In this document: positions 1 through 13,895 of the stretch, one piece after another | How positions within the stretch are numbered: position 1 is the first letter of the stretch | How the letters are laid out: each line of letters begins with the position of its first letter | Notes under the pieces: generated by a model | Told to the model about the DNA's origin: nothing | Databases searched by the model: none | The model's input: only the letters and a program-made list of their open reading frames with translations | Assembly (NCBI GenBank): GCA_963624325.1 | Contig: CAVFPH010000051.1 | Coordinates: 1 to 14,499 of the forward strand | Direction: 5' to 3' | DNA length: 14,499 bases | DNA from: a bacterium | GTDB taxonomy: Bacteria > Bacillota > Clostridia > Christensenellales > Aristaeellaceae | Translations under genes and position numbers: made by a program

Positions 1-36
1 CCTCATTGGCACTGCATCCGCCTTCATCTGCCACAG

Positions 37-236
37 GCAGCGGCGGATTTGTGCCTCCCGCCGTACACGCCGCCGCTGCGGATTTCAAACGGAGGCGCTT
101 GCGCCCTCCGTTGCCTCCCGCTGAGTTACTCCTGCTTTTACGTTGACTTCAATCAATGATAAGGTGGTTCTTTGTTACTTTCTTGGCACAAGAAAGTAAC
201 GTCCCCTTCGTTCTCCCCGTCTCTCCCCGTCCCCCC
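37..236 (+). repeat. Composite hairpin repeat, 'F' orientation, 5' part probably cut by the window edge: long stem, linker, H5, tail, H6, C-rich tract
   Basis: Stem gcagcggcgg (37-46) / ccgccgctgc (70-79). H5 is aacggaggcgc..gcgccctccgtt (88-112) with a bulged C. The tail gcctcccgctgagttactcctgcttttac recurs at 6307-6330 and, reverse-complemented, at 4169-4195. H6 is gttactttctt (174-184) / aagaaagtaac (190-200), followed by gtcccc-type C-rich repeats at 201-236. Confidence 0.85.
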
Positions 237-251
237 AGAAAGGAGTATTTC

Positions 252-1442
252 ATGATACAGCGATCTGCCGCCGCGATGGCGGGTGATCTTCCCTCCGCGG
301 AGCTTTTGCAGGGTGTTCTGCGGGAGCACATCCGCGGCTGCGCGCGCCTGCAGCGTCTTCACGCCTACTATGAGGGCGCGCACGACATCCTGCGCCGCGA
401 GCGCCGCAAGGGGCTGCCCAACACGCGCATTCCCCACGGCTACCCTGCCTACATCAGCGATATGGCGGCGGGATACCTGCTGGGCGCGCCCATCCGTTAC
501 GATTACGAGCCGACAGAGGCAATCTCTCCCCTGACGCAGGCGCTGACGGCCTGCGATTCGGCCTCGGTGGATGCCGAAATTGCCATGCAGCAAAGCGTGT
601 TCGGCCGCGGAACGGAACTGTGCTACGCCGATGAAAACGCGTGCCCGCACTGCATCGCGGTGGATCCGCGCAATGCCTTTACGGTGTACAGCGATGATGA
701 GCAGGTGCGCCCGCTCTTTGCCGTCACCCTGCGCCCCGAGATTGACGCGCGGGGCAACCGCGCCGGGGTGCGCGTCACGGTGTACACCGACCGCCTGATT
801 GCCCGCTACCGCGCCGCGCAGACGGGCGGCATCCGCCATCCCTACGAAACCGTGCCGCACTATTTCGGCTTTGTGCCCTTGACCGAGTACTGGAACAACG
901 CCCGTGAGCGCGGGGATTTTGAGCGTGTCCTGCCCCTGATTGACGCCTACGACCTGCTGCAAAGCGACCGCGTCAACGATAAGCAGCAGTTTGCCGATGC
1001 CCTGCTGGTGCTGACGGGTGTCGTGGGGCTGACCGCCCCCAAGGACGGGGATCAGCGCACCCCGGGCGAGCGGCTGCGGCAGGATAAAACCCTGGCGCTG
1101 CCCGACAGCACCGCCCGCGTGGAATGGCTGACCAAGGAGGCGCGGGAGACCGATGCCGATGTCCTGCGAGAGGCGCTTGCCCGCGATATCCACAAGTTTT
1201 CCATGATGCCCGATCTGACCGATCAGCAGTTTGCCGCCAACGCCAGCGGCGTGGCCATGCGCTATAAACTGCTGGGGCTGGAGCAGCTGACGGGCGTCAA
1301 GGAAAGGTGGTTCAAGGAAGGCCTGCGCGGCAGGGTGCGGCTGTTTAACCACTATCTGAGCCTGCTGGGAGCAAGGGAAATCGTGCCCGAAAAGGTGGAC
1401 TTCATCTTTACCCGTTCCCTCCCTCTCGACGAAACCGAGTAA
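252..1442 (+). CDS. Phage portal protein (SPP1 Gp6-like family)
   Basis: 396 aa from the ATG at 252, which follows aggag (241-245) with a 6-nt spacer. The upstream in-frame ATG at 156 lies inside the repeat. Portal-like stretches include DAEIAMQQSVFGRGTEL, FTVYSDDE, YDLLQSDRVNDKQQFADALLVLTG and FSMMPDLTDQQFAANASGVAMRYKLLGLEQL. It is the first gene of a head module. Confidence 0.85.
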   Translation: MIQRSAAAMAGDLPSAELLQGVLREHIRGCARLQRLHAYYEGAHDILRRERRKGLPNTRIPHGYPAYISDMAAGYLLGAPIRYDYEPTEAISPLTQALTACDSASVDAEIAMQQSVFGRGTELCYADENACPHCIAVDPRNAFTVYSDDEQVRPLFAVTLRPEIDARGNRAGVRVTVYTDRLIARYRAAQTGGIRHPYETVPHYFGFVPLTEYWNNARERGDFERVLPLIDAYDLLQSDRVNDKQQFADALLVLTGVVGLTAPKDGDQRTPGERLRQDKTLALPDSTARVEWLTKEARETDADVLREALARDIHKFSMMPDLTDQQFAANASGVAMRYKLLGLEQLTGVKERWFKEGLRGRVRLFNHYLSLLGAREIVPEKVDFIFTRSLPLDETE

Positions 1443-1460
1443 CATCCCCTCATTCCTAAG

Positions 1461-1517
1461 ATGGTTCTTTGGTCCTTTCTTGACTCAAGAAAGGACCGTC
1501 CCCCCGTCCCCCTACCC
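1461..1517 (+). repeat. H6 leader cassette copy (hairpin plus C-rich tract) upstream of the scaffold gene
   Basis: atggttctttg, then an 11-bp stem ggtcctttctt (1471-1481) / aagaaaggacc (1487-1497) with loop gactc, then gtccccccgtccccctaccc. Same layout as 166-236 and 9947-9997. Confidence 0.85.
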
Positions 1518-1533
1518 ACAGAAAGGAGCAGCA

Positions 1534-2001
1534 ATGCCCACCGAGGACACACAAACACACGAAAATCCGCCGCCCGCCCCAAGCGACGGGGAAAGCACCC
1601 AAGGAAACGATGCGGCGGAGCGGATGCTTGCCGCCGAGCGCGCGCGCTGGGAAGCGGCGCTTCTGGAGCAGCGCACCCTGCGCGAGCAGGCGGAAGCCGC
1701 CCTGCGGGCGCAGGCAGAGCGCACCCGCGCGGGGGAAATGCGCCTGCGCGCGGCAGACGAGCTTGCGCGGCGCGGGCTTCCCCACACCCTGATCTCCGTC
1801 CTGCGCTGCGACAGCGAGGAGGCGCTCAGCGACAGCCTGAGCAGCGTGGAGCAGGCCTTCCGCGCCTCCCTGGAGCAGGGAGTGCGCGAGCGTCTGCGCG
1901 GCGCGGCACCCGCCGCCCCCGCGGAGGAAACAGGCGGCAGGCGCCTTAGCTATCAGCAGGCCGTCCGCCGCTATCAGCAGCAAAAAAATGCCCAACCCTA
2001 A
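1534..2001 (+). CDS. Capsid scaffolding protein (DUF4355-like)
   Basis: 155 aa from the ATG at 1534, preceded by gaaaggag (1521-1528). Charged coiled region, then ELARRGLPHTLISVLRCDSEEALSDSLSSVEQAFRASLEQGVRERLRG. This resembles the KRGLP..L...L..DSEE...N...F...F signature recalled for DUF4355 scaffolds. Lies between portal and capsid genes. Confidence 0.72.
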   Translation: MPTEDTQTHENPPPAPSDGESTQGNDAAERMLAAERARWEAALLEQRTLREQAEAALRAQAERTRAGEMRLRAADELARRGLPHTLISVLRCDSEEALSDSLSSVEQAFRASLEQGVRERLRGAAPAAPAEETGGRRLSYQQAVRRYQQQKNAQP

Positions 2002-2017
2002 CCGAATAAGGAGGTAA

Positions 2018-3151
2018 ATGAACATGTCCGTAACCACTGTATCCAATATGATCATTCCCGAGGTCGTCTCCTCCCTGATTGACAGCAGCCTGGGCGACGG
2101 TGTCACCCTGCTCCCTTTGACCGAACAGGATGATACCCTGGTGGGTCAGCCGGGCGATACCCTGCGCTTTCCCGTGTTTGCCTACATCGGCAAGGCCGCC
2201 GTGGTGGCCGAAAACGGTCAGGTGATCCCGGGTCAACTGACGGCCAGCATGAAGAGCGTCACGGTGCAAAAGTACGCCAAGGCCATCTCCATTACCGATG
2301 AGGCGCGATTGTCGGGCTACGGCGATCCGGTGGGCGAGGGCAGCCGCCAGCTGGCGCACGCCCTGGATCATGCCGTGGATGACGATCTCTTCCAGTGCCT
2401 GAATGATGCCGGCGTTGCCCGCAAGTACGTGTCGGGGGCGCTGAGCGCCGATGTGATTGCCGACGCGCTGACGCTGTTCGGCGAGGATCCCGAGGGGCGC
2501 AAGGTGCTGTTGACCGATGCCGCCGGCCTTGCCGCCCTGCGCAAGGATCCCGATTTTGTCGGCCGCGGGGATATGGGCGAGGAGCTGGTCATGCACGGCG
2601 CCAAGGGCGAGGTGTGGGGCTGCGAAATCGTCATCACCAATAAGGTGCGCGAGAACCCGAAAACCAAGGAGAAAAGCTATTTTATCGTAAAGCCCGGCGC
2701 GCTGCGCCTGGTCAACAAGCAGGGCGCGATGGTGGAAATCGACCGCGAGCCCGAGTACATGCGCGATAACATCTTTGCCTCCCTGCACTGCGTGCCCTAC
2801 CTCTACGACGAAAGCAAGGTGGTGGCCATCACCCGCTTTACGGGGCTTTGCGTGCTTACCGAGGATGCGCAGAAGCTGGGCTTTGAAACCGCGGCGGCGG
2901 GCAGCGGCAAAACGCGCATTGTCATTCCCCCTGCCTGGACGGCGCCCTCCGGCTGCCGCTGGGTGTATACCCTGAACGCCTCCGCCGCCGAGGAGGGCAG
3001 CTACGATACGGTGTACAGCGCGGGCACCCCCTGGGGCGGCAATGACGCGCAGGTGGCCGCGGGCGGCAAGGCGTACTGCCATCTGCTGCTGCTGGACAGC
3101 GAAAACAAGCCCGTCAAAACGCTCACCCTTGCGGTGAACGCGGGCGTGTAA
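2018..3151 (+). CDS. Major capsid protein (HK97-fold type) with a C-terminal extension
   Basis: 377 aa. Strong SD aaggagg at 2008-2014. The ATG at 2018 is only 3 nt downstream, so the second ATG at 2024 may be the true start. Position directly after the scaffold gene. The N-terminal MSVTTVSNMIIPEVV...LPLT...GDTLRFPVF...A pattern is typical of Firmicute phage capsid proteins. Confidence 0.78.
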   Translation: MNMSVTTVSNMIIPEVVSSLIDSSLGDGVTLLPLTEQDDTLVGQPGDTLRFPVFAYIGKAAVVAENGQVIPGQLTASMKSVTVQKYAKAISITDEARLSGYGDPVGEGSRQLAHALDHAVDDDLFQCLNDAGVARKYVSGALSADVIADALTLFGEDPEGRKVLLTDAAGLAALRKDPDFVGRGDMGEELVMHGAKGEVWGCEIVITNKVRENPKTKEKSYFIVKPGALRLVNKQGAMVEIDREPEYMRDNIFASLHCVPYLYDESKVVAITRFTGLCVLTEDAQKLGFETAAAGSGKTRIVIPPAWTAPSGCRWVYTLNASAAEEGSYDTVYSAGTPWGGNDAQVAAGGKAYCHLLLLDSENKPVKTLTLAVNAGV

Positions 3152-3166
3152 AGGCAGGCGAAGGGC

Positions 3167-3475
3167 ATGACCTTGGATGAAATGCTGGCCTGCCTGCACA
3201 GGCTGCTGGATGTGGATGAAAAGCAGGATGAACTGCTCTGCGATCTGCTGGCCGATGCCAACGCGCTGATGCTGGCCTATATCGGGCGGGAGGAGCTGCC
3301 AAGCGCCCTCTCCCGCGCGCAGTGCCGCCTGGCGGCGGTGCTGTATAACCGCCTGGGCATGGAGGGGGAAAGCCGACGCACCGAGGGCAGCGTCACCGTC
3401 ACGGTGGATACCCTGCCCGAGGATATATTGACCCTGCTGCGCCCCTTCCGCCTGGCCGGGACGGTGAGCCTATGA
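3167..3475 (+). CDS. Head-tail connector / DNA-packaging protein (phage gp6-like)
   Basis: 102 aa. Helical pattern L..LL.VDE...DELL..LL.DA...M..YIGREELP.....RLAAVLYNRLG.EG resembles gp6-like head-tail connectors. Position after the capsid gene. ATGA overlap with the next gene. Confidence 0.68.
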   Translation: MTLDEMLACLHRLLDVDEKQDELLCDLLADANALMLAYIGREELPSALSRAQCRLAAVLYNRLGMEGESRRTEGSVTVTVDTLPEDILTLLRPFRLAGTVSL

Positions 3476-3810
3476 TGCGCCCGCGCCGACGCACCCGCTG
3501 CGTGCTCTATGCCGCCCGCTGCGTGCCCACAGAGGATGCCATCGGCGGGATCACGGCAGGCTACGCCCCCGAGCGCCGCCCCCTGCGCGGCACGATGATC
3601 CCCCGCACAAACCGTGATGTGCCCCGCATCCCCGGGCTCTGCCGGCAAAGGGAGGCCGACTTCCTGCTTTCCCCCGATGCCGATATCCGCGAAAGGGACG
3701 GCCTCTACGCCTCCGAGGCCGATCCCCTGCCCGCCTGGCGCGTGGCCGGGATAGACCGATACCCCCTGCACCTGTGCGCACGGCTGGAGGAGGCGGGCGC
3801 GAATGCGTAG
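3472..3810 (+). CDS. Putative head closure / head-tail adaptor protein
   Basis: 112 aa. Call rests on position between the gp6-like and gp10-like genes, on size, and on overlaps with both neighbours. No motif recognised with certainty. Confidence 0.45.
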   Translation: MMRPRRRTRCVLYAARCVPTEDAIGGITAGYAPERRPLRGTMIPRTNRDVPRIPGLCRQREADFLLSPDADIRERDGLYASEADPLPAWRVAGIDRYPLHLCARLEEAGANA

Positions 3811-4123
3811 CATCGGCATCCCCGCCTATCGCAAGAACCTGCAAAAGCGCATCGAAAACGCCCTGCAAAACATCGCCCGCGATGCGCAAATCCGCGCCCG
3901 CGCCGCCGTCCCCCTGGGCGACGGCCGCGACGGCGGACACCTCAGAGACTGCATTCTGGCGGACGCCGCCTTTGACGGCACGCGCGGCTATGCGCAGGTG
4001 ACCGCCGAAAACCCCCACGCCGCCTATGTGGAACTGGGCACCATCCATATGCCCGGGCTGCATTACCTGACGAACGCGCTGAACGAGACGGAGGGAAAAC
4101 GCTGGATACGTTACTTTCTTTAG
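3803..4123 (+). CDS. HK97 gp10-family tail/neck component
   Basis: 106 aa. The ...A...AR..VPLGDGRDGGHLRD.I........G.A.V......HAAYVELGT pattern resembles the HK97 gp10 family. The last ~13 codons and the TAG stop (4121-4123) lie inside the reverse-oriented H6 repeat. Confidence 0.62.
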   Translation: MRSIGIPAYRKNLQKRIENALQNIARDAQIRARAAVPLGDGRDGGHLRDCILADAAFDGTRGYAQVTAENPHAAYVELGTIHMPGLHYLTNALNETEGKRWIRYFL

Positions 4124-4380
4124 GAAAGAAAGTAACAAAGAACCATCTCAAAACCACTCAATGTCTACTTAAAAGCAGAGTAACTCAGCGGGTGGTCAAG
4201 GCGGGCGCGAGCGCCGCCTTGTTAAATCCGCAGCGGCGGCGTGTACGGCGCGAGGAGAAAATTCGCGAAGGAGGTTCCCTCCGAGAGCGAATTTTCATTC
4301 CTTACGTTTTTCACGGCCGTCAGCGCAGCTGACAGTGAAAAACGCAAAAAATCCGTTAAAAGTCGCGGACTTTTAACGGC
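4098..4380 (-). repeat. Most complete single copy of the composite hairpin repeat ('R' orientation on the + strand): H6, tail, H5, linker, H4, H3, A-run, H1
   Basis: H6 gttactttctt (4110-4120) / aagaaagtaac (4126-4136). H5 aaggcgggcgcgagcgccgcctt (4198-4220). H4 gaaaattcgc (4257-4266) / gcgaattttc (4287-4296), inner ggagg/cctcc. H3 cgtttttcac (4305-4314) / gtgaaaaacg (4335-4344), inner gtcagc/gctgac. H1 ccgttaaaagtc (4353-4364) / gacttttaacgg (4368-4379). Confidence 0.9.
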
Positions 4381-4396
4381 ACATCCGAAAGGAGTT

Positions 4397-4756
4397 ATGA
4401 TGATCGATTTGACCAACACCCTGCGCTGCGCGGTATCCGCCGTTGTGCCCTGCACGCAGGCCTACCCCGCGCGCGCGGCGGCCTTCCCCAGCGCGGCGGT
4501 GTACGAAAGCGGCAATGCCGTGCAGGCGCGCTGCAACGGCGGCGATTACCTGAGCGCGCTGGAATACACCGTTGAAATCCGCGCCTATGCCCCGGGGGAT
4601 ACCCACGCGCTGTCGGTACGCGTGGATGAGGCCGTCGGCGCGCTGGGCTTCAGCCGCGTATCCTGCACGGATCTCTACGACAGCGCCCTGCGCGTGCATC
4701 GCCGCGTGATGCGCTACCGCGTGCTGTGCGATGCGGACGGCACGCTCTATCAGTAA
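4397..4756 (+). CDS. Putative tail terminator / tail completion protein
   Basis: 119 aa from the ATG at 4397 after aaaggag (4388-4394). The upstream part of ORF 4241.. is repeat sequence. Sits immediately upstream of the major tail gene. Small alpha/beta-looking protein. Call is by position only. Confidence 0.4.
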   Translation: MMIDLTNTLRCAVSAVVPCTQAYPARAAAFPSAAVYESGNAVQARCNGGDYLSALEYTVEIRAYAPGDTHALSVRVDEAVGALGFSRVSCTDLYDSALRVHRRVMRYRVLCDADGTLYQ

Positions 4757-4769
4757 GGAGGAAAAAAGC

Positions 4770-5183
4770 ATGCCCACAAAAACCATGGGAACGGTGTTTT
4801 CCCTGACGCCCGCAGGCGGCGAGCGCACGCAGATCGGATATCTGACCTCCATCGGCGAAATCGCCTGCGACAGCGAAATGATTGATATTACCACCCTGGA
4901 TCGGCAGGACGGCTGCCGCGTTTATATGCAGGGGGTGCGGGACGCGGGCGAAATGCGCCTGACGGGCTTCCACCGAAAGGACGCGGGCGGGCAGGCGCTG
5001 GTGCGCACCCTGTACAGCAGCGGCAGGGAGGCCGTCGCGCGCGTCGATTTTGCCGACGGCACGGCCTTTGAATTCCCCGTGCTCGTCAAGGGCTGGTCCC
5101 TTGGCGCATCGCAGGTGGAGGGCGCGGTCAGCTTTGCCTGCACCCTGCGCTTAAACGGCGCCGTAGAAAGCGTGAGCGCATGA
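4770..5183 (+). CDS. Major tail (tube) protein
   Basis: 137 aa from the ATG at 4770 after taaggagg (4754-4761). GTVF.L.......T.IG.L.SIGEI..DSE.IDITTLD resembles phi13/TP901-type major tail proteins. Followed by a chaperone-like gene with an ATGA overlap. Confidence 0.6.
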   Translation: MPTKTMGTVFSLTPAGGERTQIGYLTSIGEIACDSEMIDITTLDRQDGCRVYMQGVRDAGEMRLTGFHRKDAGGQALVRTLYSSGREAVARVDFADGTAFEFPVLVKGWSLGASQVEGAVSFACTLRLNGAVESVSA

Positions 5184-5680
5184 TGCCCCGCTATGCTGAA
5201 ATATTGAACCGTGCCTGGCCGCTGAGAATCACCCTTGCAAGCGCCGTGCGCGCAAGGGAAATCGGCGGCAAGCCCCTGCGGGAACTGTGCGCGGAGGGCA
5301 TGCCCGGCACATTGCTTTTGCTTTATGCCGCCCTGGCCGGGGAGCGCAAAAGCGTGACCCTTTCCCAGGCGGCGCGCCTGCTGTCCGCCGCCGCAAAGGA
5401 TCGGGATACCCTGGATGCCCTGCTCTCCGCCCTGACGCTGGCGCTTCGGGACAGCGGCTTTGACTGGGCGGACATCAGCCGCGAAGGGGTTGAGCGCCTC
5501 ACCCATGCCGCCCTGCGTGCAGGCTGCCCCGGGGCGGCGGAACTGCCTGACATGGGCTATACCGACGCGTTCGCCCTGATTTGGCGCTTTTTGAAGGATA
5601 GGCACGAAACCCCCGCCCCCATGGACGATAAAGATATGCAGTCCCTGCTGCGCGGCATGGCGAAGGGAGGCAAAAAATGA
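5180..5680 (+). CDS. Tail assembly chaperone (gpG-like)
   Basis: 166 aa directly after the major tail gene. The N-terminal LRITLASAVRAREIGGKPLREL pattern is typical of Firmicute phage tail chaperones. Ends in GGC AAA AAA TGA, with the next ORF in the -1 frame. Confidence 0.5.
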   Translation: MMPRYAEILNRAWPLRITLASAVRAREIGGKPLRELCAEGMPGTLLLLYAALAGERKSVTLSQAARLLSAAAKDRDTLDALLSALTLALRDSGFDWADISREGVERLTHAALRAGCPGAAELPDMGYTDAFALIWRFLKDRHETPAPMDDKDMQSLLRGMAKGGKK

Positions 5681-6090
5681 CCACCCTGGATACCCTGTGC
5701 GTGCGCCTGGAGGCCGAGGCGGGGGATGTTTTCGGCAAACTGGACACCCTGGAAACGCGCCTGCATGCCCTGCGCGGGCAGGGCGCGCAGACAATCTCCC
5801 TGCCCGCAGATCTGGAAATGCGCCTGACCGTCGCGGCGGATGATGCCGTGTCCGCCGCGCTTGCGGGCGCAGGCGAAACGCTGGCCGCCGCCGTCGCGGG
5901 CCACGATGCGCAGCTGGGCGCGGCGCTCGCCTCGGCGCAGCAGGCCCTGGCCGATGCCCTTACCGCCGCCGTCAACCGCCTGTCCGCCTCGCTTAACGTT
6001 ACCGTACCGGTCTATATCGACAGCACCCGCGTGGCAAATGCGGTGGTGGGAAATGTGAAGCAAAAACTAATGATGAAGGGAGGCCGTTAA
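5677..6090 (+). CDS. 137-aa Ala-rich helical protein: either a miniature tape measure protein or the T-domain of a G/GT chaperone pair
   Basis: Has its own SD gggagg (5664-5669), about 7 nt before the ATG at 5677. Predicted coiled and Ala-rich (AADDAVSAALAGAGETLAAAVAGHDAQLGAALASAQQALADALTAAV). C-terminal VPVYIDSTRVANAVVGNV. The TAA stop (6088-6090) lies inside repeat hairpin H1. Confidence 0.4.
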   Translation: MTTLDTLCVRLEAEAGDVFGKLDTLETRLHALRGQGAQTISLPADLEMRLTVAADDAVSAALAGAGETLAAAVAGHDAQLGAALASAQQALADALTAAVNRLSASLNVTVPVYIDSTRVANAVVGNVKQKLMMKGGR

Positions 6091-6335
6091 AAGTCCGCTT
6101 CGCGGTCTTTTAACGGGTATTCCGATAAAAATCTGCGGATTTTTATCGGGGTTTGGCGGATTTTCTTGTGCGCCGATGGCGCACGGGCAGAAAATCCGTA
6201 AGGAATGAAAATTTCCTCTCGCAGGAAACCTGCTTCGGAAATTTTCTCCTCCCGCCGTACACGCCGCCGGTCCGGGTTATAAACGGAGGCGCTCGCGCCC
6301 TCCGTTGCCTCCCGCTGAATTACTCTGCGATAAGC
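6084..6335 (+). repeat. Composite hairpin repeat, full 'F' copy: H1, H2, H3, H4, linker, H5, tail
   Basis: H1 6084-6116 (14 bp, one T/T mismatch). H2 ccgataaaaatc (6122-6133) / gatttttatcgg (6138-6149). H3 cggattttct (6157-6166) / agaaaatccg (6189-6198), inner gtgcgcc/ggcgcac. H4 gaaaatttcc (6207-6216) / ggaaattttc (6237-6246), inner gcagg/cctgc. H5 aacggaggcgc..gcgccctccgtt (6282-6306). Confidence 0.9.
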
Positions 6336-6363
6336 AGCCAAGCGGGACTGCACTTCAAAACAA

Positions 6364-6628
6364 ACTTGGCGGGTGGTCAAGGCGGGCGCGAGCGCCGCCT
6401 TGTTAATTCGTATCGCGGGGCAGGTTTCGCCTGTTTCCATCGGCATTGCCGATCAAGCTATTGGGCGAAGCCGTGAAAAAGCGGCAATGCCGTCCGCGCG
6501 GGCGGGGAAAATCCGCGAAGGAGGTCTCCTCCGAGAGCGGATTTTCATTCCTCTCAGATTTTCTGACCGTGAGCGCAGCTCACAGGAAAATCTGCAATAC
6601 CCGTTGAAAATCGAAAGATTTTCAACGG
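6364..6628 (-). repeat. Composite hairpin repeat, full 'R' copy with an extra ~70-nt insert: H5, insert, H4, H3, H2
   Basis: 6364-6420 is identical to 12833-12889 (57 nt). The insert carries stem ggcattgccg (6441-6450) / cggcaatgcc (6482-6491). H4 6507-6546. H3 6555-6594. H2 ccgttgaaaatc (6601-6612) / gattttcaacgg (6617-6628). Confidence 0.9.
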
Positions 6629-6644
6629 CAAAAAAGGAGCTTTT

Positions 6645-6998
6645 ATGTCTTTACTCACCCTGAACAGCGCATCCCTGCCCGATCCCACCGCGCTGACGGT
6701 GGAAATCGGCGATGCGCTCTCCTCCGTCCGCCGCACGCTGTCGGGCACGGCGTGCGTCACCCGCGCGGGCATCAAGCGCCGCGTGCGCATCCGCTGGGCG
6801 GTGATGACGCCGCAAAACCTGACCGCCCTGCTGACCATCCTGTGCGGGGATGCCGTTGTCACCCTGGGCTACCCCGACCCCGTGACGGGCGATGGGCGGG
6901 AAATGCGCGCCTACTGCGAAAAGCGCAGCGTCGGGCTTTACCGCGGGGGCAGCGATCCTGTGTGGACAGCCGTTGAAATCACCTTGCAGGAGGCCTGA
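6645..6998 (+). CDS. Putative minimal distal tail protein (Dit-like)
   Basis: 117 aa. SD aaggag at 6634-6639. Lies immediately upstream of the large hub/fibre gene (stop 6996-6998, next ATG 7001). Call is by position only, and the protein is small for a Dit. Confidence 0.35.
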   Translation: MSLLTLNSASLPDPTALTVEIGDALSSVRRTLSGTACVTRAGIKRRVRIRWAVMTPQNLTALLTILCGDAVVTLGYPDPVTGDGREMRAYCEKRSVGLYRGGSDPVWTAVEITLQEA

Positions 6999-7000
6999 AC

Positions 7001-9895
7001 ATGAATTGCCAACAGGCTTTTTACGCGGAAAACCGCACGCTCAGCGCCTGCGGCACCATCACCCTGTGTACGGGCTACGAAATCCCCCTTACGGCTTCGG
7101 ATATCCTTGATTTTGAGGTCACAGGCGGCGTGCAGGGCGCCATGCTCTGCGGCAGCGCGCTCAGCGCCTATGGCAGGCTCACATTGGCTAATCCAAACGG
7201 CGCGTGGCTGCAGGGCGGCGAGCGCCTCGGCACGCGCACGCTGAGCGGCGCCGCGGTGAAAATCACCCTTTGCGCCGCGGCGGACGGGCAGGAATATCCT
7301 GTTCCCTGCGCGCGCTTTCTGGTGCGCGATATCCAAAGCGGCGAGGGCGAGGATACTATCACCCTCTCGGGCTATGACGAAATGCTCACCTGCCTGTCCG
7401 TGCCCTTTTCGGATGATATGACCTACCCCCAAACCCTGGGCGCGCTGGCGGAAAATATCATCCGAAAAACCGGCCTCCCCTGCGAAACCCTGCCTGCCTG
7501 CAATGCCGATGCCGTCTTGTCCGCCGCCCCCGACTGGGGCGAGGGCTGCACCCTGCGCCGCGCGCTCAGCATGGTTGCCGGCGCCATGGGCTGCTTTGCC
7601 TATGTTGCCCCGCAGGGCAGCCTTTGCCTGAAACCCGTGTGGCAGGCACCCGAGCGCACCCTGACGGCGGGCAGCTGCTTTTCCCTGTCCCTCTCCTGCG
7701 CGGATTTTGTCCTGAACCGCCTGCGCGTCACCGATGCCGCGGGGAATGTCTTGGCCGATGCCGCCTTTGATGCCGCCCTTCCCGCCGCCGCCGACAACAC
7801 GCTGGAAATCAGCGGCAGCGCGGTCTTTGCCGTCGGGGATGCCGATGCCATGGCGCAGAACATCCTAAAATCGCTTCACGGCATGACGCTGACGCCCTTT
7901 GAGGGCGAACTGCCCGCCGATCCCACCCTGCGGACGGGGGACTGCGTGGAATGGACAGATCTTCGCGGCCGCGCGCACCTTTCCTGCATCCTGCAGTGCA
8001 CATTGACGATGGGGCAGGAGGGCACGGCGCGCATCACCTGCGATCCCGATGCCTCGGGCGTCAGCCTGCCCCAGGCGCTCTCGGGCAGCGGGCTTTTGGG
8101 CGGCGGGCTGCTTGGGGATGGGGTCATCACCGCCCGCAATCTGGCCGTCGGCGCGGTGGATGCCGAGCACATCGCCGCCCGCAGCATCACGGCGGATAAA
8201 ATCGCCCCCGGCACCATCACCGCCGAAAGCGGGGTCATCGGCAGCCTGTCGGCCGATCTCATCACCGCCGGCAAGCTGGATACCGATCGGCTGATTGTGG
8301 GCGGCACCGAGTTTTCCATCGTCCGCGCCCTGAACCAAATGCCCAAGGAGGCCGCCGGGCAGGATAACCGCCTGAGCGGGGAGGTGCTGGCAGGCGGCAC
8401 GGTCTCCCCCGATAAGGTAACGGCGGATTTCGGCACGGGCATTGAAATATCGGATAACGCCGCCCTCCTTTTGCTTGCGGGCAAGCTGGACGGCACCAAC
8501 AGCCATATGGAGCTTACGCAGGATGCCATCAACATGGTGGGCGGGGATATCAACATTGCCACCGACAGATTGCAAATCCGCGGCGTCACCGACGGCGAGG
8601 AGCGCATGAGCCTGGACGGCGAGGGTCTAAGCGCCCTGCGCGTGGTGGTCAGGGAGCGCTTTTCCGCCCCCAACGCAATGCTGAAATGCCTGACGGATAC
8701 CGCCCCGTGGCAGGGCGGCGTGCAGGCCAGCCTGGATGCCCTGCCCAAATACCTGACACGCAAAACCACCCTGCGCATCCCCGCGGGCAGCTATGCCGAA
8801 AACGTCACGGTATCGGGCTTCTGCGGGGAAGAAATAATCCTCCTGTTTGAAAGCGGCGCGTATTTGAATGGCGCCGTCACCGTGCAGAACTGCGGCAGCG
8901 TCACCCTGACAGCCGTAAATTTGGGGGATGGCTGTATCTATTCCGCGGACGCGCAAATCCCCCTGTCCGCCGTATGCGTACAGCAGCTGACCGTCAGCCG
9001 CCTGTACCTTTCGGGTGACCGCGCGCGCACGCAAAGCGGCGGCGGCAGCGCGTACTGCCTGCAGGCGCAGGGCTGCAATACGGATGTATCGGGCTGCGGC
9101 CTGGAGTATGCGGACACGGCCTGCCTGCACGTGCTGGGCGGCACCGCCTGCCTGCGGGACTGCCTTGGCGGCTGCACGGGCAGCAACCCCGCCACCAACG
9201 CCAACCTCGGCACGGCGGCGCTGGGCGCGCGCGGGGCGCACATTGCAGTCTCGGGCACCGTCCCCATGACTTTGGGCGGCACCTGCGGGGAGGATTCGCA
9301 GGCATCCTATTGCACGGGCGCGCTGGGCACGCAGACGGCGGGCGGCATGCGCCTTCCCGGCGGCACCCCCATCACCCGCACCTTTGCGCCCTCCTTCCAC
9401 TGCAGCTATTCGGGCACCAGCCGCAAGGCCTACCCCGAAAACAACCTCATCTGGCAGGGCGTGTACAAAGCCTACCGCCGCGGGTACAACGATTTCAACA
9501 CCGGCACCCTGTGGTTTGAGGAGGCCGCGCAGGCGCTGCAGGGCAAAACGGTGCGGCAGGCTACCTTGACCATCCGCCGCGCCAACGGCGGCTCGTCTGA
9601 TGCGCGCAATGTGTATCTGGGCACGGTCAAGCTGCTGCAAAGCGACTGGCAGACCACCTATCGTCCGGAGTTCATCGCCCCCGAAACCCTGCCCGCCTAC
9701 CCCGCGGGAACGCTCAAACGCGAAACCGAGGGCACGTTTGACGTAACCGGCCTGATGGCGGGCGTGCAGCAGGGCTATGGCATCGGCGTGTATGAGCCCT
9801 GCGCCGCCTACAGCGGCAGCAGCTCGGCGCACTATACGCAGTTTTACGCGCTGGGAAGCGACTACGTGCCCATTCTCACGGTCACGTATGAATAA
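7001..9895 (+). CDS. Tail hub / tail-associated fibre protein (Tal-like N-terminus, fibre repeats, beta-helix-like region, C-terminal putative receptor-binding domain)
   Basis: 964 aa. The N-terminal ~350 aa resembles siphovirus prophage-tail (Tal / Gp37-like) hubs. Residues ~370-430 carry I.A..I repeats (ITARNLAVGAVDAEHIAARSITADKIAPGTITAESGVIGSLSADLITAGKLDTDRLIVGG) typical of phage fibres. Residues ~600-760 are Gly/Cys-rich and beta-helix-like. Confidence 0.75.
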   Translation: MNCQQAFYAENRTLSACGTITLCTGYEIPLTASDILDFEVTGGVQGAMLCGSALSAYGRLTLANPNGAWLQGGERLGTRTLSGAAVKITLCAAADGQEYPVPCARFLVRDIQSGEGEDTITLSGYDEMLTCLSVPFSDDMTYPQTLGALAENIIRKTGLPCETLPACNADAVLSAAPDWGEGCTLRRALSMVAGAMGCFAYVAPQGSLCLKPVWQAPERTLTAGSCFSLSLSCADFVLNRLRVTDAAGNVLADAAFDAALPAAADNTLEISGSAVFAVGDADAMAQNILKSLHGMTLTPFEGELPADPTLRTGDCVEWTDLRGRAHLSCILQCTLTMGQEGTARITCDPDASGVSLPQALSGSGLLGGGLLGDGVITARNLAVGAVDAEHIAARSITADKIAPGTITAESGVIGSLSADLITAGKLDTDRLIVGGTEFSIVRALNQMPKEAAGQDNRLSGEVLAGGTVSPDKVTADFGTGIEISDNAALLLLAGKLDGTNSHMELTQDAINMVGGDINIATDRLQIRGVTDGEERMSLDGEGLSALRVVVRERFSAPNAMLKCLTDTAPWQGGVQASLDALPKYLTRKTTLRIPAGSYAENVTVSGFCGEEIILLFESGAYLNGAVTVQNCGSVTLTAVNLGDGCIYSADAQIPLSAVCVQQLTVSRLYLSGDRARTQSGGGSAYCLQAQGCNTDVSGCGLEYADTACLHVLGGTACLRDCLGGCTGSNPATNANLGTAALGARGAHIAVSGTVPMTLGGTCGEDSQASYCTGALGTQTAGGMRLPGGTPITRTFAPSFHCSYSGTSRKAYPENNLIWQGVYKAYRRGYNDFNTGTLWFEEAAQALQGKTVRQATLTIRRANGGSSDARNVYLGTVKLLQSDWQTTYRPEFIAPETLPAYPAGTLKRETEGTFDVTGLMAGVQQGYGIGVYEPCAAYSGSSSAHYTQFYALGSDYVPILTVTYE

Positions 9896-9896
9896 G

Positions 9897-9925
9897 CCGA
9901 TGAAAGCCATTCGGCTTTCATCAGG
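9897..9925 (+). terminator. Possible weak intrinsic terminator after the fibre gene
   Basis: 10-bp stem gatgaaagcc (9899-9908) / ggctttcatc (9913-9922), loop attc, 4 nt after the TAA at 9893-9895. The downstream U-tract is poor (aggcttacccctgctttt). Confidence 0.3.
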
Positions 9926-9930
9926 CTTAC

Positions 9931-9997
9931 CCCTGCTTTTACAGATGGTTCTTTGGTCCTTTCTTATCGCAGGAAAGGACCGTTCTCCCCGTTTCTC
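9931..9997 (+). repeat. H6 leader cassette copy upstream of the holin gene
   Basis: ccctgcttttac, then agatggttctttg, then stem ggtcctttctt (9955-9965) / aggaaaggacc (9971-9981) with one G.U on the + strand, loop atcgc, then gttctccccgtttctc. Confidence 0.85.
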
Positions 9998-10011
9998 AGA
10001 AAGGAAATCGT

Positions 10012-10425
10012 ATGCAAAAATACATAAAGCCCCTGATCGGGGCAATCGGAACAATCGGCACCTACCTTGTGTATCTGCTCGGCGGCTGGGATGCCGCGCT
10101 GACGGTCATGTTTCTGCTGATGGGCTTTGACTGCCTGACAGGGCTGCTGACGGCCTTTGCGGGCAAGAGCGACAAGACGCAGGGGGGCGGCTTTCGCTCC
10201 TCGGCGGCGTTTGCGGGCATCAGCAAAAAGATGATGATGGTGGTCATCGTGATGCTCGCCACGGCGCTTGACCGCCTGACGGGGGACAGCGGCGTGTGCC
10301 GCAGTGCCGCCATCGGCTTCTATGCCGCCAATGAAGGCTTGTCCATCCTGGAAAACGCCGCCGCGCTGGGCGTGCCTTTTCCCAAAGCAATCACGGAGGC
10401 GCTGGAAGCGCTCCGTGACCGATAA
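10012..10425 (+). CDS. Holin, phage holin family 4 (TcdE-like)
   Basis: 137 aa. Three hydrophobic segments. MGFDCLTGLL.AF, S....GI.KK....V.V.LA...D and ..FY.ANEGLSILENAA.LGVP.P match the pattern recalled for the toxin-secretion/phage-lysis holin family. The last ~11 codons and the stop fall inside hairpin repeats. Confidence 0.8.
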   Translation: MQKYIKPLIGAIGTIGTYLVYLLGGWDAALTVMFLLMGFDCLTGLLTAFAGKSDKTQGGGFRSSAAFAGISKKMMMVVIVMLATALDRLTGDSGVCRSAAIGFYAANEGLSILENAAALGVPFPKAITEALEALRDR

Positions 10426-10501
10426 AAGTTTTCAACTTTTATCGGGTAGCCGCTGAAAATCTGCAAAAAAAACCGTTAAAAGTCGTCAGACTTTTAACGG
10501 C
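10391..10501 (-). repeat. Compressed composite repeat bridging the holin 3' end and the recF 3' end: H5-like, H2-like, half-H3, A-run, H1
   Basis: H5-like tcacggag(g)cgc (10391-10402) / gcgctccgtga (10408-10418) with a bulged G. H2-like ccgataaaagtt (10419-10430) / aacttttatcgg (10435-10446). gctgaaaatctgc matches an H3 3' arm. H1 ccgttaaaagtc (10473-10484) / gacttttaacgg (10489-10500). Confidence 0.8.
10463..10501 (-). terminator. Intrinsic terminator of recF (H1 hairpin plus a run of 8 T on the - strand)
   Basis: The - strand reads ccgttaaaagtctgacgacttttaacggttttttttgcag. It is a 12-bp stem followed by a run of 8 T. The recF TAA stop (10494-10496) sits in the 5' arm. Confidence 0.7.
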
Positions 10502-12055: not shown

Positions 12056-12693
12056 AGGATGATCCGCGCCGCCTCCCGCAGGTTCTCGCACACCGCGTCG
12101 CAGAAGGGCGCAAGCTCGGGGGTGTAGGGCTGCATATCGGGCACCATCACGGTGAACGCCCCCGCCGCGCGTCCCGCGCGCAGGCCTTTGGGGGAGTCTT
12201 CCAGCACCGCGCACTGATTGATGGGCACGTTCAAAAGCTCGGCCGCCCGCAGGAACATGTCGGGCGCGGGCTTGCTGGGCAGGCCGATATCGCAGGGCAC
12301 CAGCGCCTCAAAATAATCGCTGATGCCGGCGCTGGCCAGGTTGCGTACCACCTCGCTGGTCGGGCTGCCCGATGCCACCGCCATGCGCAGTCCCGCCTGA
12401 CGGAAAGCCTCCACCGTCTCCTTCAGGTAGGGCTTTTCGGGCGCGCCGTGCGCCGCCACATAGCGGTTGCCCGCCGCGCGGTAGGCAGGCCAAAAGTCCT
12501 CGGGACGGTAGGCGGGAATCAGGGGCGAAAGGTATTCGTCCACCGCCTTTTCGCTGGTGCCCAGGGTGTGCAGGATCATCTCCTCCGTAAGTTCATACCC
12601 CAGGGAGTGCGCCACCTCGCCTGCCAGCTTGCCGAACAGCCGCTCGGTGTCAAACATCAGTCCGTCCATGTCAAAGAGTACCGCGGTAATCAT
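12046..12693 (-). CDS. HAD-superfamily hydrolase, subfamily IA (phosphatase / beta-phosphoglucomutase-like)
   Basis: 215 aa from the ATG at 12693 with SD aggagg (12701-12706, - strand). MITAVLFDMDGLMFDTE gives the DxDG motif I. ASGS fits motif II. VLEDSPKGLRAGRAAG fits motif IV. Overlaps the rlmH start by 10 nt. Confidence 0.85.
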   Translation of the reverse strand: MITAVLFDMDGLMFDTERLFGKLAGEVAHSLGYELTEEMILHTLGTSEKAVDEYLSPLIPAYRPEDFWPAYRAAGNRYVAAHGAPEKPYLKETVEAFRQAGLRMAVASGSPTSEVVRNLASAGISDYFEALVPCDIGLPSKPAPDMFLRAAELLNVPINQCAVLEDSPKGLRAGRAAGAFTVMVPDMQPYTPELAPFCDAVCENLREAARIILCR

Positions 12694-12722
12694 ATAAAAC
12701 CTCCTATCGGTTGCAGTAACAA

Positions 12723-13057
12723 AGGAAAATCCGCCATAACCCGTTGAAAATCGCAGATTTTCAACGGAATAACGGCTCGTCCGACGAGCATAGCCTTTTG
12801 GTACGCCCCTTCCAAGCAAGACAGCAGAAGTAACTTGGCGGGTGGTCAAGGCGGGCGCGAGCGCCGCCTTGTTAATTCGTATCGCGGGGCTTTGCCGCGC
12901 GGGCGGGGAAAATTCGCGAAGGAGGTTCCCTCCGAGAGCGAATTTTCATTCCTCTCAGATTTTCCGGCCGTGCGCTTTGCGCACAGGAAAATCTGCAATA
13001 ACCCGTTGAAAATCGCAGATTTTCAACGGAATAACGGCTCGTCCGATGAGCATAGCC
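12723..13057 (-). repeat. Composite hairpin repeat in a housekeeping intergenic region, arranged as a 262-bp-period partial tandem duplication
   Basis: 12736-12795 equals 13000-ish copy 12998-13057 (60 nt, one mismatch, 12785 c versus 13047 t). Similarity extends back to 12723 / 12985. Between them are H5 (12848-12870), H4 (12908-12947) and H3 (12956-12995). H2 occurs at 12741-12767 and 13003-13029. Confidence 0.9.
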
Positions 13058-13895
13058 ACGCACCTGCGATCATGATCCCCAGCGCCGCCAGATAGCTTGC
13101 CTGCGGCACCTCGCGGAAGATGATCAGCGACAGCAGCGCCCCGATAAAGGGGGATACCGCGTAGTACGCGCTGGTGCGCGCCGCGCCCAGCAGCCGCTGG
13201 GCATACACGTAAAAGTAAATGCTGAGCCCGTAGGCCACAAACCCTACCGCCAGCACGGGCAGAATCAGGGAAAGCGAGGGCATCCTCTCCCCGCAAAGCA
13301 GAGCGATGATTACCGAGCCCGTGCCCGAAAAAATGCCCTTCAGCAGCACAATCTGCAGGGGATCCTTGCCCGACAGCCGCCGCGTGCAGTTGTTTTCAAA
13401 TCCCCAGCACACGCACGCCAGCAATATCAGCAGCGATCCCGCCGAAAAGCGCAGGCTTGCCGCGTCCTCCACCGACAGGATGGCGCAGCTGACCGCCGTA
13501 AACAGGATGCCCGCCCACAGCCGCGGGCTGACGGACTCCCCGAAAATCACCAGGGCGATGATCGCCGTGGCCACAATCTCAAAATTGTTAAGCAGCGAGG
13601 CCGCCGCCGCCGAGGTGGATTTCAGCCCCAGCATCAGGCACACGGGCGCGGCAATGTCCAGCAGGATCATGGCCGCCGTCCAGGGCAATTCCCGCCGTGT
13701 CAGGCGCAATTCCCGCCCCTGCTTTCCCCGCAGACGCCGAAAAAGGGCAATAAGCACCATGCCGATCCCCGCCCCGATGTAGAGCAGCCCCGCCATGACA
13801 GTGGGCGGCACGGACACCAAAAGCAGCTTGGACAGCGGCGCATTCAGCGCGTAGAGCGCCGCGGCCAGCAGCGCCAGCGCAATCCCCCTGCGCAT
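13023..13895 (-). CDS. EamA/DMT-family transporter (about 10 TM)
   Basis: 290 aa from the ATG at 13895, SD aggaggggga (13901-13910, - strand). Hydrophobic throughout. ALLAAALYALNAPLSKLLL and SAYYAVSPFIGALLSLIIF are typical of the two EamA repeats. The last ~11 codons and the TGA stop lie in repeat sequence. Confidence 0.85.
   Translation of the reverse strand: MRRGIALALLAAALYALNAPLSKLLLVSVPPTVMAGLLYIGAGIGMVLIALFRRLRGKQGRELRLTRRELPWTAAMILLDIAAPVCLMLGLKSTSAAAASLLNNFEIVATAIIALVIFGESVSPRLWAGILFTAVSCAILSVEDAASLRFSAGSLLILLACVCWGFENNCTRRLSGKDPLQIVLLKGIFSGTGSVIIALLCGERMPSLSLILPVLAVGFVAYGLSIYFYVYAQRLLGAARTSAYYAVSPFIGALLSLIIFREVPQASYLAALGIMIAGAWLCSSDEPLFR

Follow-up and report, generated by a model that had tools for sequence, protein, structure and literature searches.

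The stretch of DNA analyzed here (the window) comprises the 14,499 nucleotides of contig CAVFPH010000051.1 from GenBank assembly GCA_963624325.1, a member of the Aristaeellaceae (Clostridia). Positions 156-10425 hold a compact phage-like structural cluster encoding an SPP1-type portal, a DUF4355 scaffold, a capsid protein, connectors, a tail protein, a 964-amino-acid (aa) protein, and a holin, and this cluster is followed by the host genes recF, SPOUT methyltransferase, HAD hydrolase, EamA transporter, and pyroglutamyl peptidase (pcp). The cluster directly adjoins recF, and its gene order is conserved in several Clostridia metagenome-assembled genomes (MAGs) and in one IMG/VR contig. No gene for an integrase or for lysogeny was seen around positions 156-10425, and the cluster could be a defective prophage or a unit resembling a gene transfer agent. 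The 964-aa protein shares 100% identity with P0121. The contigs that encode P0121 come from GCA_963614755.1 (L024) and GCA_963620175.1 (L025), and each can be aligned colinearly with the window, at a nucleotide identity of 99.4-99.5%; the species of the window is represented by these two assemblies. Sister clusters with a capsid identity of 55-85% are present in other Clostridia MAGs (L001-L008 and L032), and RecF proteins that are 84-94% identical are encoded on contigs L012-L023.

Positions 6157-6246, to which an initial annotation had drawn attention, are two stem-loops, H3 and H4, that belong to R1, a copy of a composite repeat in reverse orientation. By repeat finding and alignment, the composite was defined as a unit of approximately 205 nucleotides (nt) with the fixed order H5, GTGTAC linker (which contains GGCGTGTACG), H4, CATTCCT linker, H3, and H2, in which all of the modules are imperfect palindromes of 25-42 nt. 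Some copies are joined to a further hairpin, either H1 on the H5 side (e.g., 4110-4143) or H0 after H2 (e.g., 13037-13051), and modules are also met singly, truncated, or swapped between copies. The composite is present at least six times within approximately 20 kb of same-species DNA; five of these copies lie in the window, three forward (F1, F2, and F3) and two reverse (R1 and R2). Both orientations are represented, and every copy is intergenic. The features are as follows.

1-131, minus strand: composite R2, cut by the window start, with H5 at 88-112 and the GTGTAC linker at 62-71.
4175-4379, plus strand: composite F1, with H5 at 4197-4221, H4 at 4257-4296, H3 at 4305-4344, and H2 at 4353-4379.
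6084-6116, no strand assigned: solitary H2-type hairpin, CCGTTAAAAGTCCGC-TTC-GCGGTCTTTTAACGG, the 5' arm of which provides the stop codon (6088-6090) of the gene at 5677-6090.
6122-6328, minus strand: composite R1, containing 6157-6246 and recognized by alignments, fold, and a covariance-model match, with H2 at 6122-6149, H3 at 6157-6198, a linker at 6199-6206, H4 at 6207-6246, the GTGTAC linker at approximately 6256-6265, and H5 at 6282-6306.
6150-6644, no strand assigned: block of 495 bp (the rest of R1, F2, and, ahead of the ribosome-binding site, a spacer that differs), in the strain of the window only.
6356-6628, plus strand: composite F2, with H5 at 6378-6402, H4 at 6507-6546, H3 at 6555-6594, and H2 at 6601-6628.
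10419-10445 and 10473-10500, no strand assigned: two solitary H2-type hairpins between the holin gene (plus strand) and recF (minus strand).
12720-12795, plus strand: truncated copy consisting of the 3' half of H3, H2 at 12741-12767, and H0 at 12775-12789.
12825-13057, plus strand: composite F3, with H5 at 12847-12871, H4 at 12908-12947, H3 at 12956-12995, H2 at 13003-13029, and H0 at 13037-13051.
Approximately 13651-13858 of L024, past the window end: composite F4, the sixth copy, with the H4 inner stem GAAGC/GCTTC.

R1 and F2 together make up an inverted doublet, and the other copies are singlets. The match of R1 to the covariance model covers 6157-6249 on the minus strand and scores 105.7 bits. 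F2 carries an extra hairpin-rich insert of approximately 68 nt between H5 and H4 (approximately 6421-6490); the insert has small palindromes of its own (CAGG..CCTG and CGGCATTGCCG / CGGCAATGCCG) and represents a further module type. F1 is preceded by a reverse-oriented H1 (4110-4143), and R2 adjoins an H1 (167-200) upstream of the portal gene. In R2 (1-60, minus strand), the place of H4 is held by another hairpin, GCACAAATCCGCC...GGCGGATGCAGTGC, with the inner stem CTGCC/GGCAG; the conspecific contigs also stop at this position. F3 lies between the EamA and HAD genes, which are both on the minus strand, and its end (12982-13057) forms a 76-nt direct repeat with the truncated copy at 12720-12795, at a distance of 262 bp.

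Hairpin H1 has a distribution that extends beyond the composite. It occurs in the window at 167-200, 1464-1497, and 9948-9981 (plus strand) and at 4110-4143 (minus strand), in L024 at 13594-13627 (minus strand), in L001 at 8100-8133, 12275-12308, and 12135-12168 (minus strand), and in L002, L005, and L032. Its layout comprises GTTCTTTG, an 11-bp hairpin (GTTAC, GGTCC, or GTTTC followed by TTTCTT, a 5-nt loop, and AAGAAA-...), and GTCCCC, followed by a C/T-rich, G-poor tract of 20-55 nt, then GAAAGGAG and the ATG. H1 precedes portal, scaffold, holin, and pcp genes, is kept in the sister species, and has a stem that covaries; it resembles a control element of the phage-like cluster, of the shared-leader or promoter type. 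Of the hairpins, just H1 recurs in the sister clusters (L001-L008 and L032), and on these grounds the idea that the composite is a conserved component of the cluster was rejected.

The H2 arm CCG(A/T)TAAAAG gives the TAA stop codon to four genes, namely, the gene at 5677-6090 (arm at 6084-6095), the holin gene (10419-10430), recF on the minus strand (10489-10500), and the 138-aa L024 allele of the gene at 5677-6090 (L024 5940-5951). The two hairpins between holin and recF thus each include the TAA of their own gene. Because the arm carries the stop codon, gain or loss of the hairpin alters the final two or three codons for the upstream protein (137 versus 138 aa). The hairpin at 10473-10500, with a T-run on the minus strand, looks like an intrinsic terminator by its sequence, and a matching hairpin follows recF in L023, the RecF of which is 94% identical.

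All of the hairpin sequences quoted in the initial annotation were found at the positions given there. H4 at 4257-4296 and at 12908-12947 reads GAAAATTCGC-GAA-GGAGG-TTC-CCTCC-GAGA-GCGAATTTTC, the copy at 6507-6546 has the outer stem CCGC/GCGG, and the minus strand of 6207-6246 reads GAAAATTTCC-GAA-GCAGG-TTT-CCTGC-GAGA-GGAAATTTTC. The inner stems of H3 are gtcagc/gctgac (4319-4333), gtgagc/gctcac (6569-6583), gtgcgc/gcgcac (12970-12984), and gtgcgcc/ggcgcac (6168-6184); the whole of H3 at 6157-6198 reads CGGATTTTCT-GCCC-GTGCGCC-ATC-GGCGCAC-A-AGAAAATCCG on the minus strand. The two stem versions described for H5 (GGCGG/CCGCC and GGAGG/CCTCC), with one bulged base retained, are also present, although the labels given there to the forward and reverse copies are the reverse of those used here. 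Throughout the composite units the outer stems are AT-rich and the inner stems GC-rich. The modules fold independently, in beads-on-a-string fashion, and the 95 nt around 6157-6246 give folding z scores of -6.8 to -8.0 relative to shuffled sequences, whichever strand is folded and whether it is treated as RNA or DNA. The arms of the R1+F2 doublet are approximately 80% complementary, and when the doublet is folded as one strand, it reaches -276 kcal/mol, compared to -230.6 kcal/mol for the separate halves, with 140 of 192 pairs joining the halves.

Covariation in H4 and H3 was assessed in seven paralogous copies from the window, two conspecific assemblies, and one metagenome contig. In these seven copies, some of which are linked by gene conversion and from which the structure itself was derived, 99.5% of 218 stem cells were in standard pairs, and 15 of 32 pairs had changed on both sides, with no one-sided changes. 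None of 500 column shuffles reached the observed pairing and covariation, and controls in which the partners were slid were 30-57% paired. The lone unpaired cell is a misregistered, longer inner stem in L011. The other modules behave similarly: the H2 family is 100% paired, with two-sided changes at 4 of 12 pairs (eight hairpins), and H5 has four stem versions, every one of which is paired. The GAA/GAGA and GNCC/A internal loops and the CATTCCT linker are almost invariant across copies. Among unpaired columns of the internal loops and linkers, 17 of 20 were invariant, compared to 32 of 63 paired columns (Fisher P = 0.0085); none of the five terminal-loop columns was. The copies of another organism (L010 and L011) have the same geometry, with the outer stem CCC/GGG and the inner stem GGCC(C)G/CGGCC.

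The suggestion that these paired changes reflect selection on the fold, and not recent duplication alone, is supported by these data: changes in the stems are numerous and invariably two-sided, the geometry is retained in L010 and L011 with wholly different inner stems, F4 has a further H4 inner stem, and conservation is higher in the asymmetric internal loops and linkers than in the stems.

A mutational origin of the perfect stems, in which quasi-palindrome correction (intrastrand template switching) and gene conversion operate with no selection on the fold, would be expected to yield near-perfect stems devoid of one-sided changes, and the region is recombinationally unstable, with visible gene conversion. 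F2 and F3 share a 59-nt tract of 100% identity and yet differ in H4 and H3, and H3 is identical between R1 and F4. However, templated correction should also erase asymmetric loops and bulges, and the GAA/GAGA and GNCC/A loops and the H5 bulge are retained in all copies, including those of the other organism, and the loops and bulges are more conserved than the stems. The fifth pair of H0 (GCTCG-TCCGA-CGAGC; 12775-12789, 13037-13051, and L024 at approximately 12094-12108) occurs as G-C, as G.T, and, in L024, as A-T; read from the sequences, this series is stepwise compensation among sequences that are otherwise 99.5% identical, and it does not look like one-step correction. Since the asymmetric loops and the bulge persist, we regard templated correction alone as very improbable.

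Equally, the inverted repeats could be envisioned as double-stranded DNA operators for dimeric regulators of the phage-like cluster. A GAAAATC/GATTTTC heptamer recurs in the arms of H2, H3, and H4, and several copies lie inside the phage-like structural operon, as the L011 copy does inside another. Binding by one regulator should keep the site sequence constant, whereas these half-sites vary within one genome and still remain complementary; in addition, copies are found between host genes (EamA/HAD and pcp/RecD2) and are dispensable between strains. The covariation of the half-sites within one genome makes this explanation highly improbable, and selection on the fold remains the preferred reading of the paired changes.

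G.U pairs in two hairpins on the plus-strand reading had also been taken as a weak hint that the fold might act at the RNA level, with the proposal that the G.U versus A.C asymmetry might indicate the strand. The T.G pairs at 6564.6585 and 9964.9972 do exist; the RNA-level role that was read from them is unsupported, because both strands fold equally well at 6157-6246 and the orientation relative to the flanking genes is mixed. Three copies (F1, F2, and L010) have F as the sense strand, and five (R1, R2, F3, F4, and L011) have it as the antisense strand. The asymmetry itself was uninformative, since G.U pairs turn up on either strand in minimum-energy folds.

A functional structured RNA, either a cis element cotranscribed with the operon, where it could affect termination, processing, or stability or insulate cistrons from one another, or a multicopy small RNA with transcription of its own, nevertheless deserves consideration. 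The purine-rich asymmetric GAA/GAGA loop and the GNRA-type loops (GCGA in H5 and GAAA in some H2 hairpins) are typical RNA motifs, copies lie within operons, in the space that separates a stop codon from the ribosome-binding site of the next gene, and, as RNA, the F strand is more stable than the R strand by 1-10 kcal/mol in six of seven copies. In the well-defined stems, all four G.T pairs (6564.6585, H0 at 13041.13047, the L025 copy of F3, and an H2-like stem of L011) are on the F strand and none is on the R strand, numbers that are too small for significance; for three of the four, that strand is not the one transcribed with the flanking genes. Just three of eight copies have F as the sense strand, the strands of R1 fold equally well, and copies are dispensable between strains. 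No sigma-70-like promoter was found inside the composite, and a scan of both strands detected no T-run after H3 or H4; its two H5 matches were weak 5-bp partial stems, and the only positive was H2 at 4353-4379 (minus strand), to which 10473-10500 (minus strand) can be added by eye. The best Rfam matches in 6080-6650 scored 11-15 bits against gathering scores of 35-270, a search of the whole window with Rfam 15 returned a single unrelated match (E = 0.99), and a known RNA family was thereby ruled out. The mixed orientation and the location of G.T pairs on the untranscribed strand argue against a cotranscribed, strand-specific RNA, and overall we consider a structured RNA unlikely. The strand pattern would fit a folded DNA strand, or hairpins whose action does not depend on their orientation.

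A coding function was rejected as well: open reading frames cross the copies, but varying loop lengths and inserts break the frame, and the changes come in base-paired sets. Among structural motifs, a kink-turn in H4 was set aside by eye, as the 3+4 loop is unlike a 3-nt bulge with tandem G.A pairs; the GAA/GAGA internal loop may be loop-E-like.

Copies of the composite have been gained and lost among strains that are 99.5% identical, and the same junctions are empty in sister species. The block at 6150-6644 is absent from four conspecific contigs (L024, L025, L039, and L040): in L025, L039, and L040, 17 bp stand in its place, and in L024, 47 bp replace all of 6084-6644, so that the solitary H2 at 6084-6116 is missing too. 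The junction between the genes at 5677-6090 and 6645-6998 spans 555 bp in the window, compared to 76 bp in L025 and L039 and 26-37 bp in L024 and the sister species L001, L004, L005, and L032. The long R1+F2 allele is known from the window's own assembly alone and could conceivably reflect a misassembly. F3 is present in L025 and missing from L024, which holds one copy of the 76-nt unit; given the flanking 76-nt direct repeats, this absence is best explained by recombination, not by transposition. In L011, the 235 bp that separate the portal stop codon from the following gene are taken up by a composite; in related phages, this gap measures 10-18 bp. No target-site duplication was found at the polymorphic junctions (window versus L025 and L024; L011 versus L034 and L033), which are imprecise, the sequence up to the start codon also having been replaced. 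The H4+H3 covariance model detected no copy in approximately 290 kb from sister species and related phages. Several short-read contigs (L029-L031, L039-L041, L023, and L025) start or end inside H1, H4, or H2, an indirect indication of further copies elsewhere in the genome.

The pattern used to scan metagenomes was anchored on one half of each hairpin (3' for H4 and 5' for H3) and the linker between them, so that pairing was not preselected. The scan returned two true copies (L010 and L011) and one chance match (L009, 42% GC). Exact patterns for H4 and the junction had no match in IMG/VR or in GTDB representative genomes, the exact H2 pattern had none in IMG/VR, and exact and homologue look-ups for more same-species DNA yielded only L024, L025, and short Logan contigs ending at repeats. 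Known phage DNA was rejected as a source, with no megablast match in 50,697 phage records.

Taken together, the composite is probably a dispersed, unstable, structure-constrained mosaic repeat of an uncultured gut Clostridia species, and the best reading of the data is that it is a lineage-restricted, modular REP/BIME/BOX-like repeat selected for a folded single strand. The combination of variable stems with conserved unpaired bases leads us to infer a protein that reads a folded single strand. Such a protein would recognize the conserved unpaired bases (GAA/GAGA, CATTCCT, GNCC/A, and one bulge), and the stems would need only to pair; the folded strand would then serve the persistence or spread of the element. 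The likeliest mode would be that of REP/BIME/REPIN or BOX elements, in which copies may be moved or copied in trans or may spread via recombination and gene conversion, and would be tolerated at operon junctions. If transcribed, the hairpins could have a secondary role as RNA 3'-end or stability barriers, with H2 acting as a terminator-like hairpin that even donates stop codons. Since the repeat is dispersed and polymorphic for insertion and deletion, "function" may mean only its own persistence or spread. A trans-acting transposase that recognizes the composite as single-stranded DNA is possible, if somewhat doubtful; no RAYT or other transposase gene was found in approximately 35 kb of same-species DNA.

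In two unrelated phage-type clusters, a composite copy is positioned exactly between a stop codon and the following ribosome-binding site. It can be envisioned that the composite is an undescribed Clostridia hairpin-array element, with the invariant unpaired motifs as the recognition code of a dedicated protein, which would be part of a new single-strand transposase/recombinase system or an RNA-binding factor that punctuates phage-like structural operons. We consider this proposal quite unlikely and favor the REP/BIME/BOX-like reading; the biological questions that the composite raises are those already familiar from REP, REPIN, and BOX elements.

To our knowledge, interspersed repeats have been little catalogued in uncultured gut Clostridia-type lineages, and the composite adds a well-defined modular family of hairpin repeats from one of these. 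Its copies are a neat example, on a small scale, of evolution in which structure is preserved and unpaired bases are conserved. The H4+H3 covariance model can be used for masking or for a census of the family, the composite repeats fragment metagenome assemblies of this lineage, and the gain and loss of copies at the strain level offers possible strain markers.

REPINs are REP doublets mobilized by RAYTs, which are Y1 transposases of the IS200/IS605-like type. The composite resembles REP and BIME elements in that it is intergenic, occurs in both orientations, and consists of imperfect palindromic units with conserved linkers in mosaic clusters that differ between close strains, with no terminal inverted repeats and no target duplications. 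As in REP sequences and REPINs, for which compensatory changes and hairpin doublets have been documented (PMC3116915), its stems are held by compensatory changes, and the inverted R1+F2 doublet can form one long foldback hairpin, as a REPIN can, although its arms are short of near-identity. The sequences are unrelated, however, and the composite combines AT-rich outer with GC-rich inner stems in a Firmicute MAG; the conserved 5' GTAG of REP sequences was not noticed in it by eye. REP/BIME clusters contain one or two unit types in alternating orientation, whereas the composite has four or five hairpin types in a fixed order. The likeness to BIMEs is therefore one of architecture only: the composite is unrelated to the Y and Z palindromic units of Escherichia coli and is not a member of the BIME family.

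Likewise, the BOX elements of Streptococcus pneumoniae (boxA, repeated boxB, and boxC) are Gram-positive, modular, intergenic composites, the length of which varies by extra modules; they are predicted to fold strongly and to be cotranscribed with neighboring genes and have been classed as MITE-like despite lacking classic MITE ends (PMC3184786). Their sequence is unrelated to that of the composite, and boxA pairs with boxC into one long stem-loop, whereas the modules of the composite fold separately. The bcr1 repeat of the Bacillus cereus group is a further Firmicute interspersed repeat, of approximately 155 nt, with two independent stem-loops, a fold kept by compensatory changes, and a distribution that varies between close strains (PMC3184786). 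It differs in its 5-bp flanking direct repeats and known transcription, the composite having no target duplication.

Other classes were set aside. In local alignment, the first 40 nt of the composite and the reverse complement of its last 40 nt score 5-8 (eight copy definitions), compared to a mean of 4.8-6.2 and a maximum of 9-13 for shuffled ends, and the lack of terminal inverted repeats and of target-site duplications rules out a MITE such as Correia/NEMIS or RUP. H2, a 12-bp hairpin at gene 3' ends, is reminiscent of SPRITEs and intrinsic terminators, and two of the seven H2-type hairpins in the window (10473-10500 and 4353-4379) are followed by a T-run on the minus strand; H3, H4, H5, and most H2 hairpins are not, and the composite also lies upstream of genes in both orientations. 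A plain array of intrinsic terminators, which would be GC-rich hairpins each directly followed by a T tract, was rejected. Integron attC-like sites, in which structure is conserved over sequence and extrahelical bases occur, were set aside because the annotated same-species DNA contains no integrase gene. In conclusion, among bacterial repeats the composite is a further representative of the known REP/BIME/BOX type and not a new kind of element.
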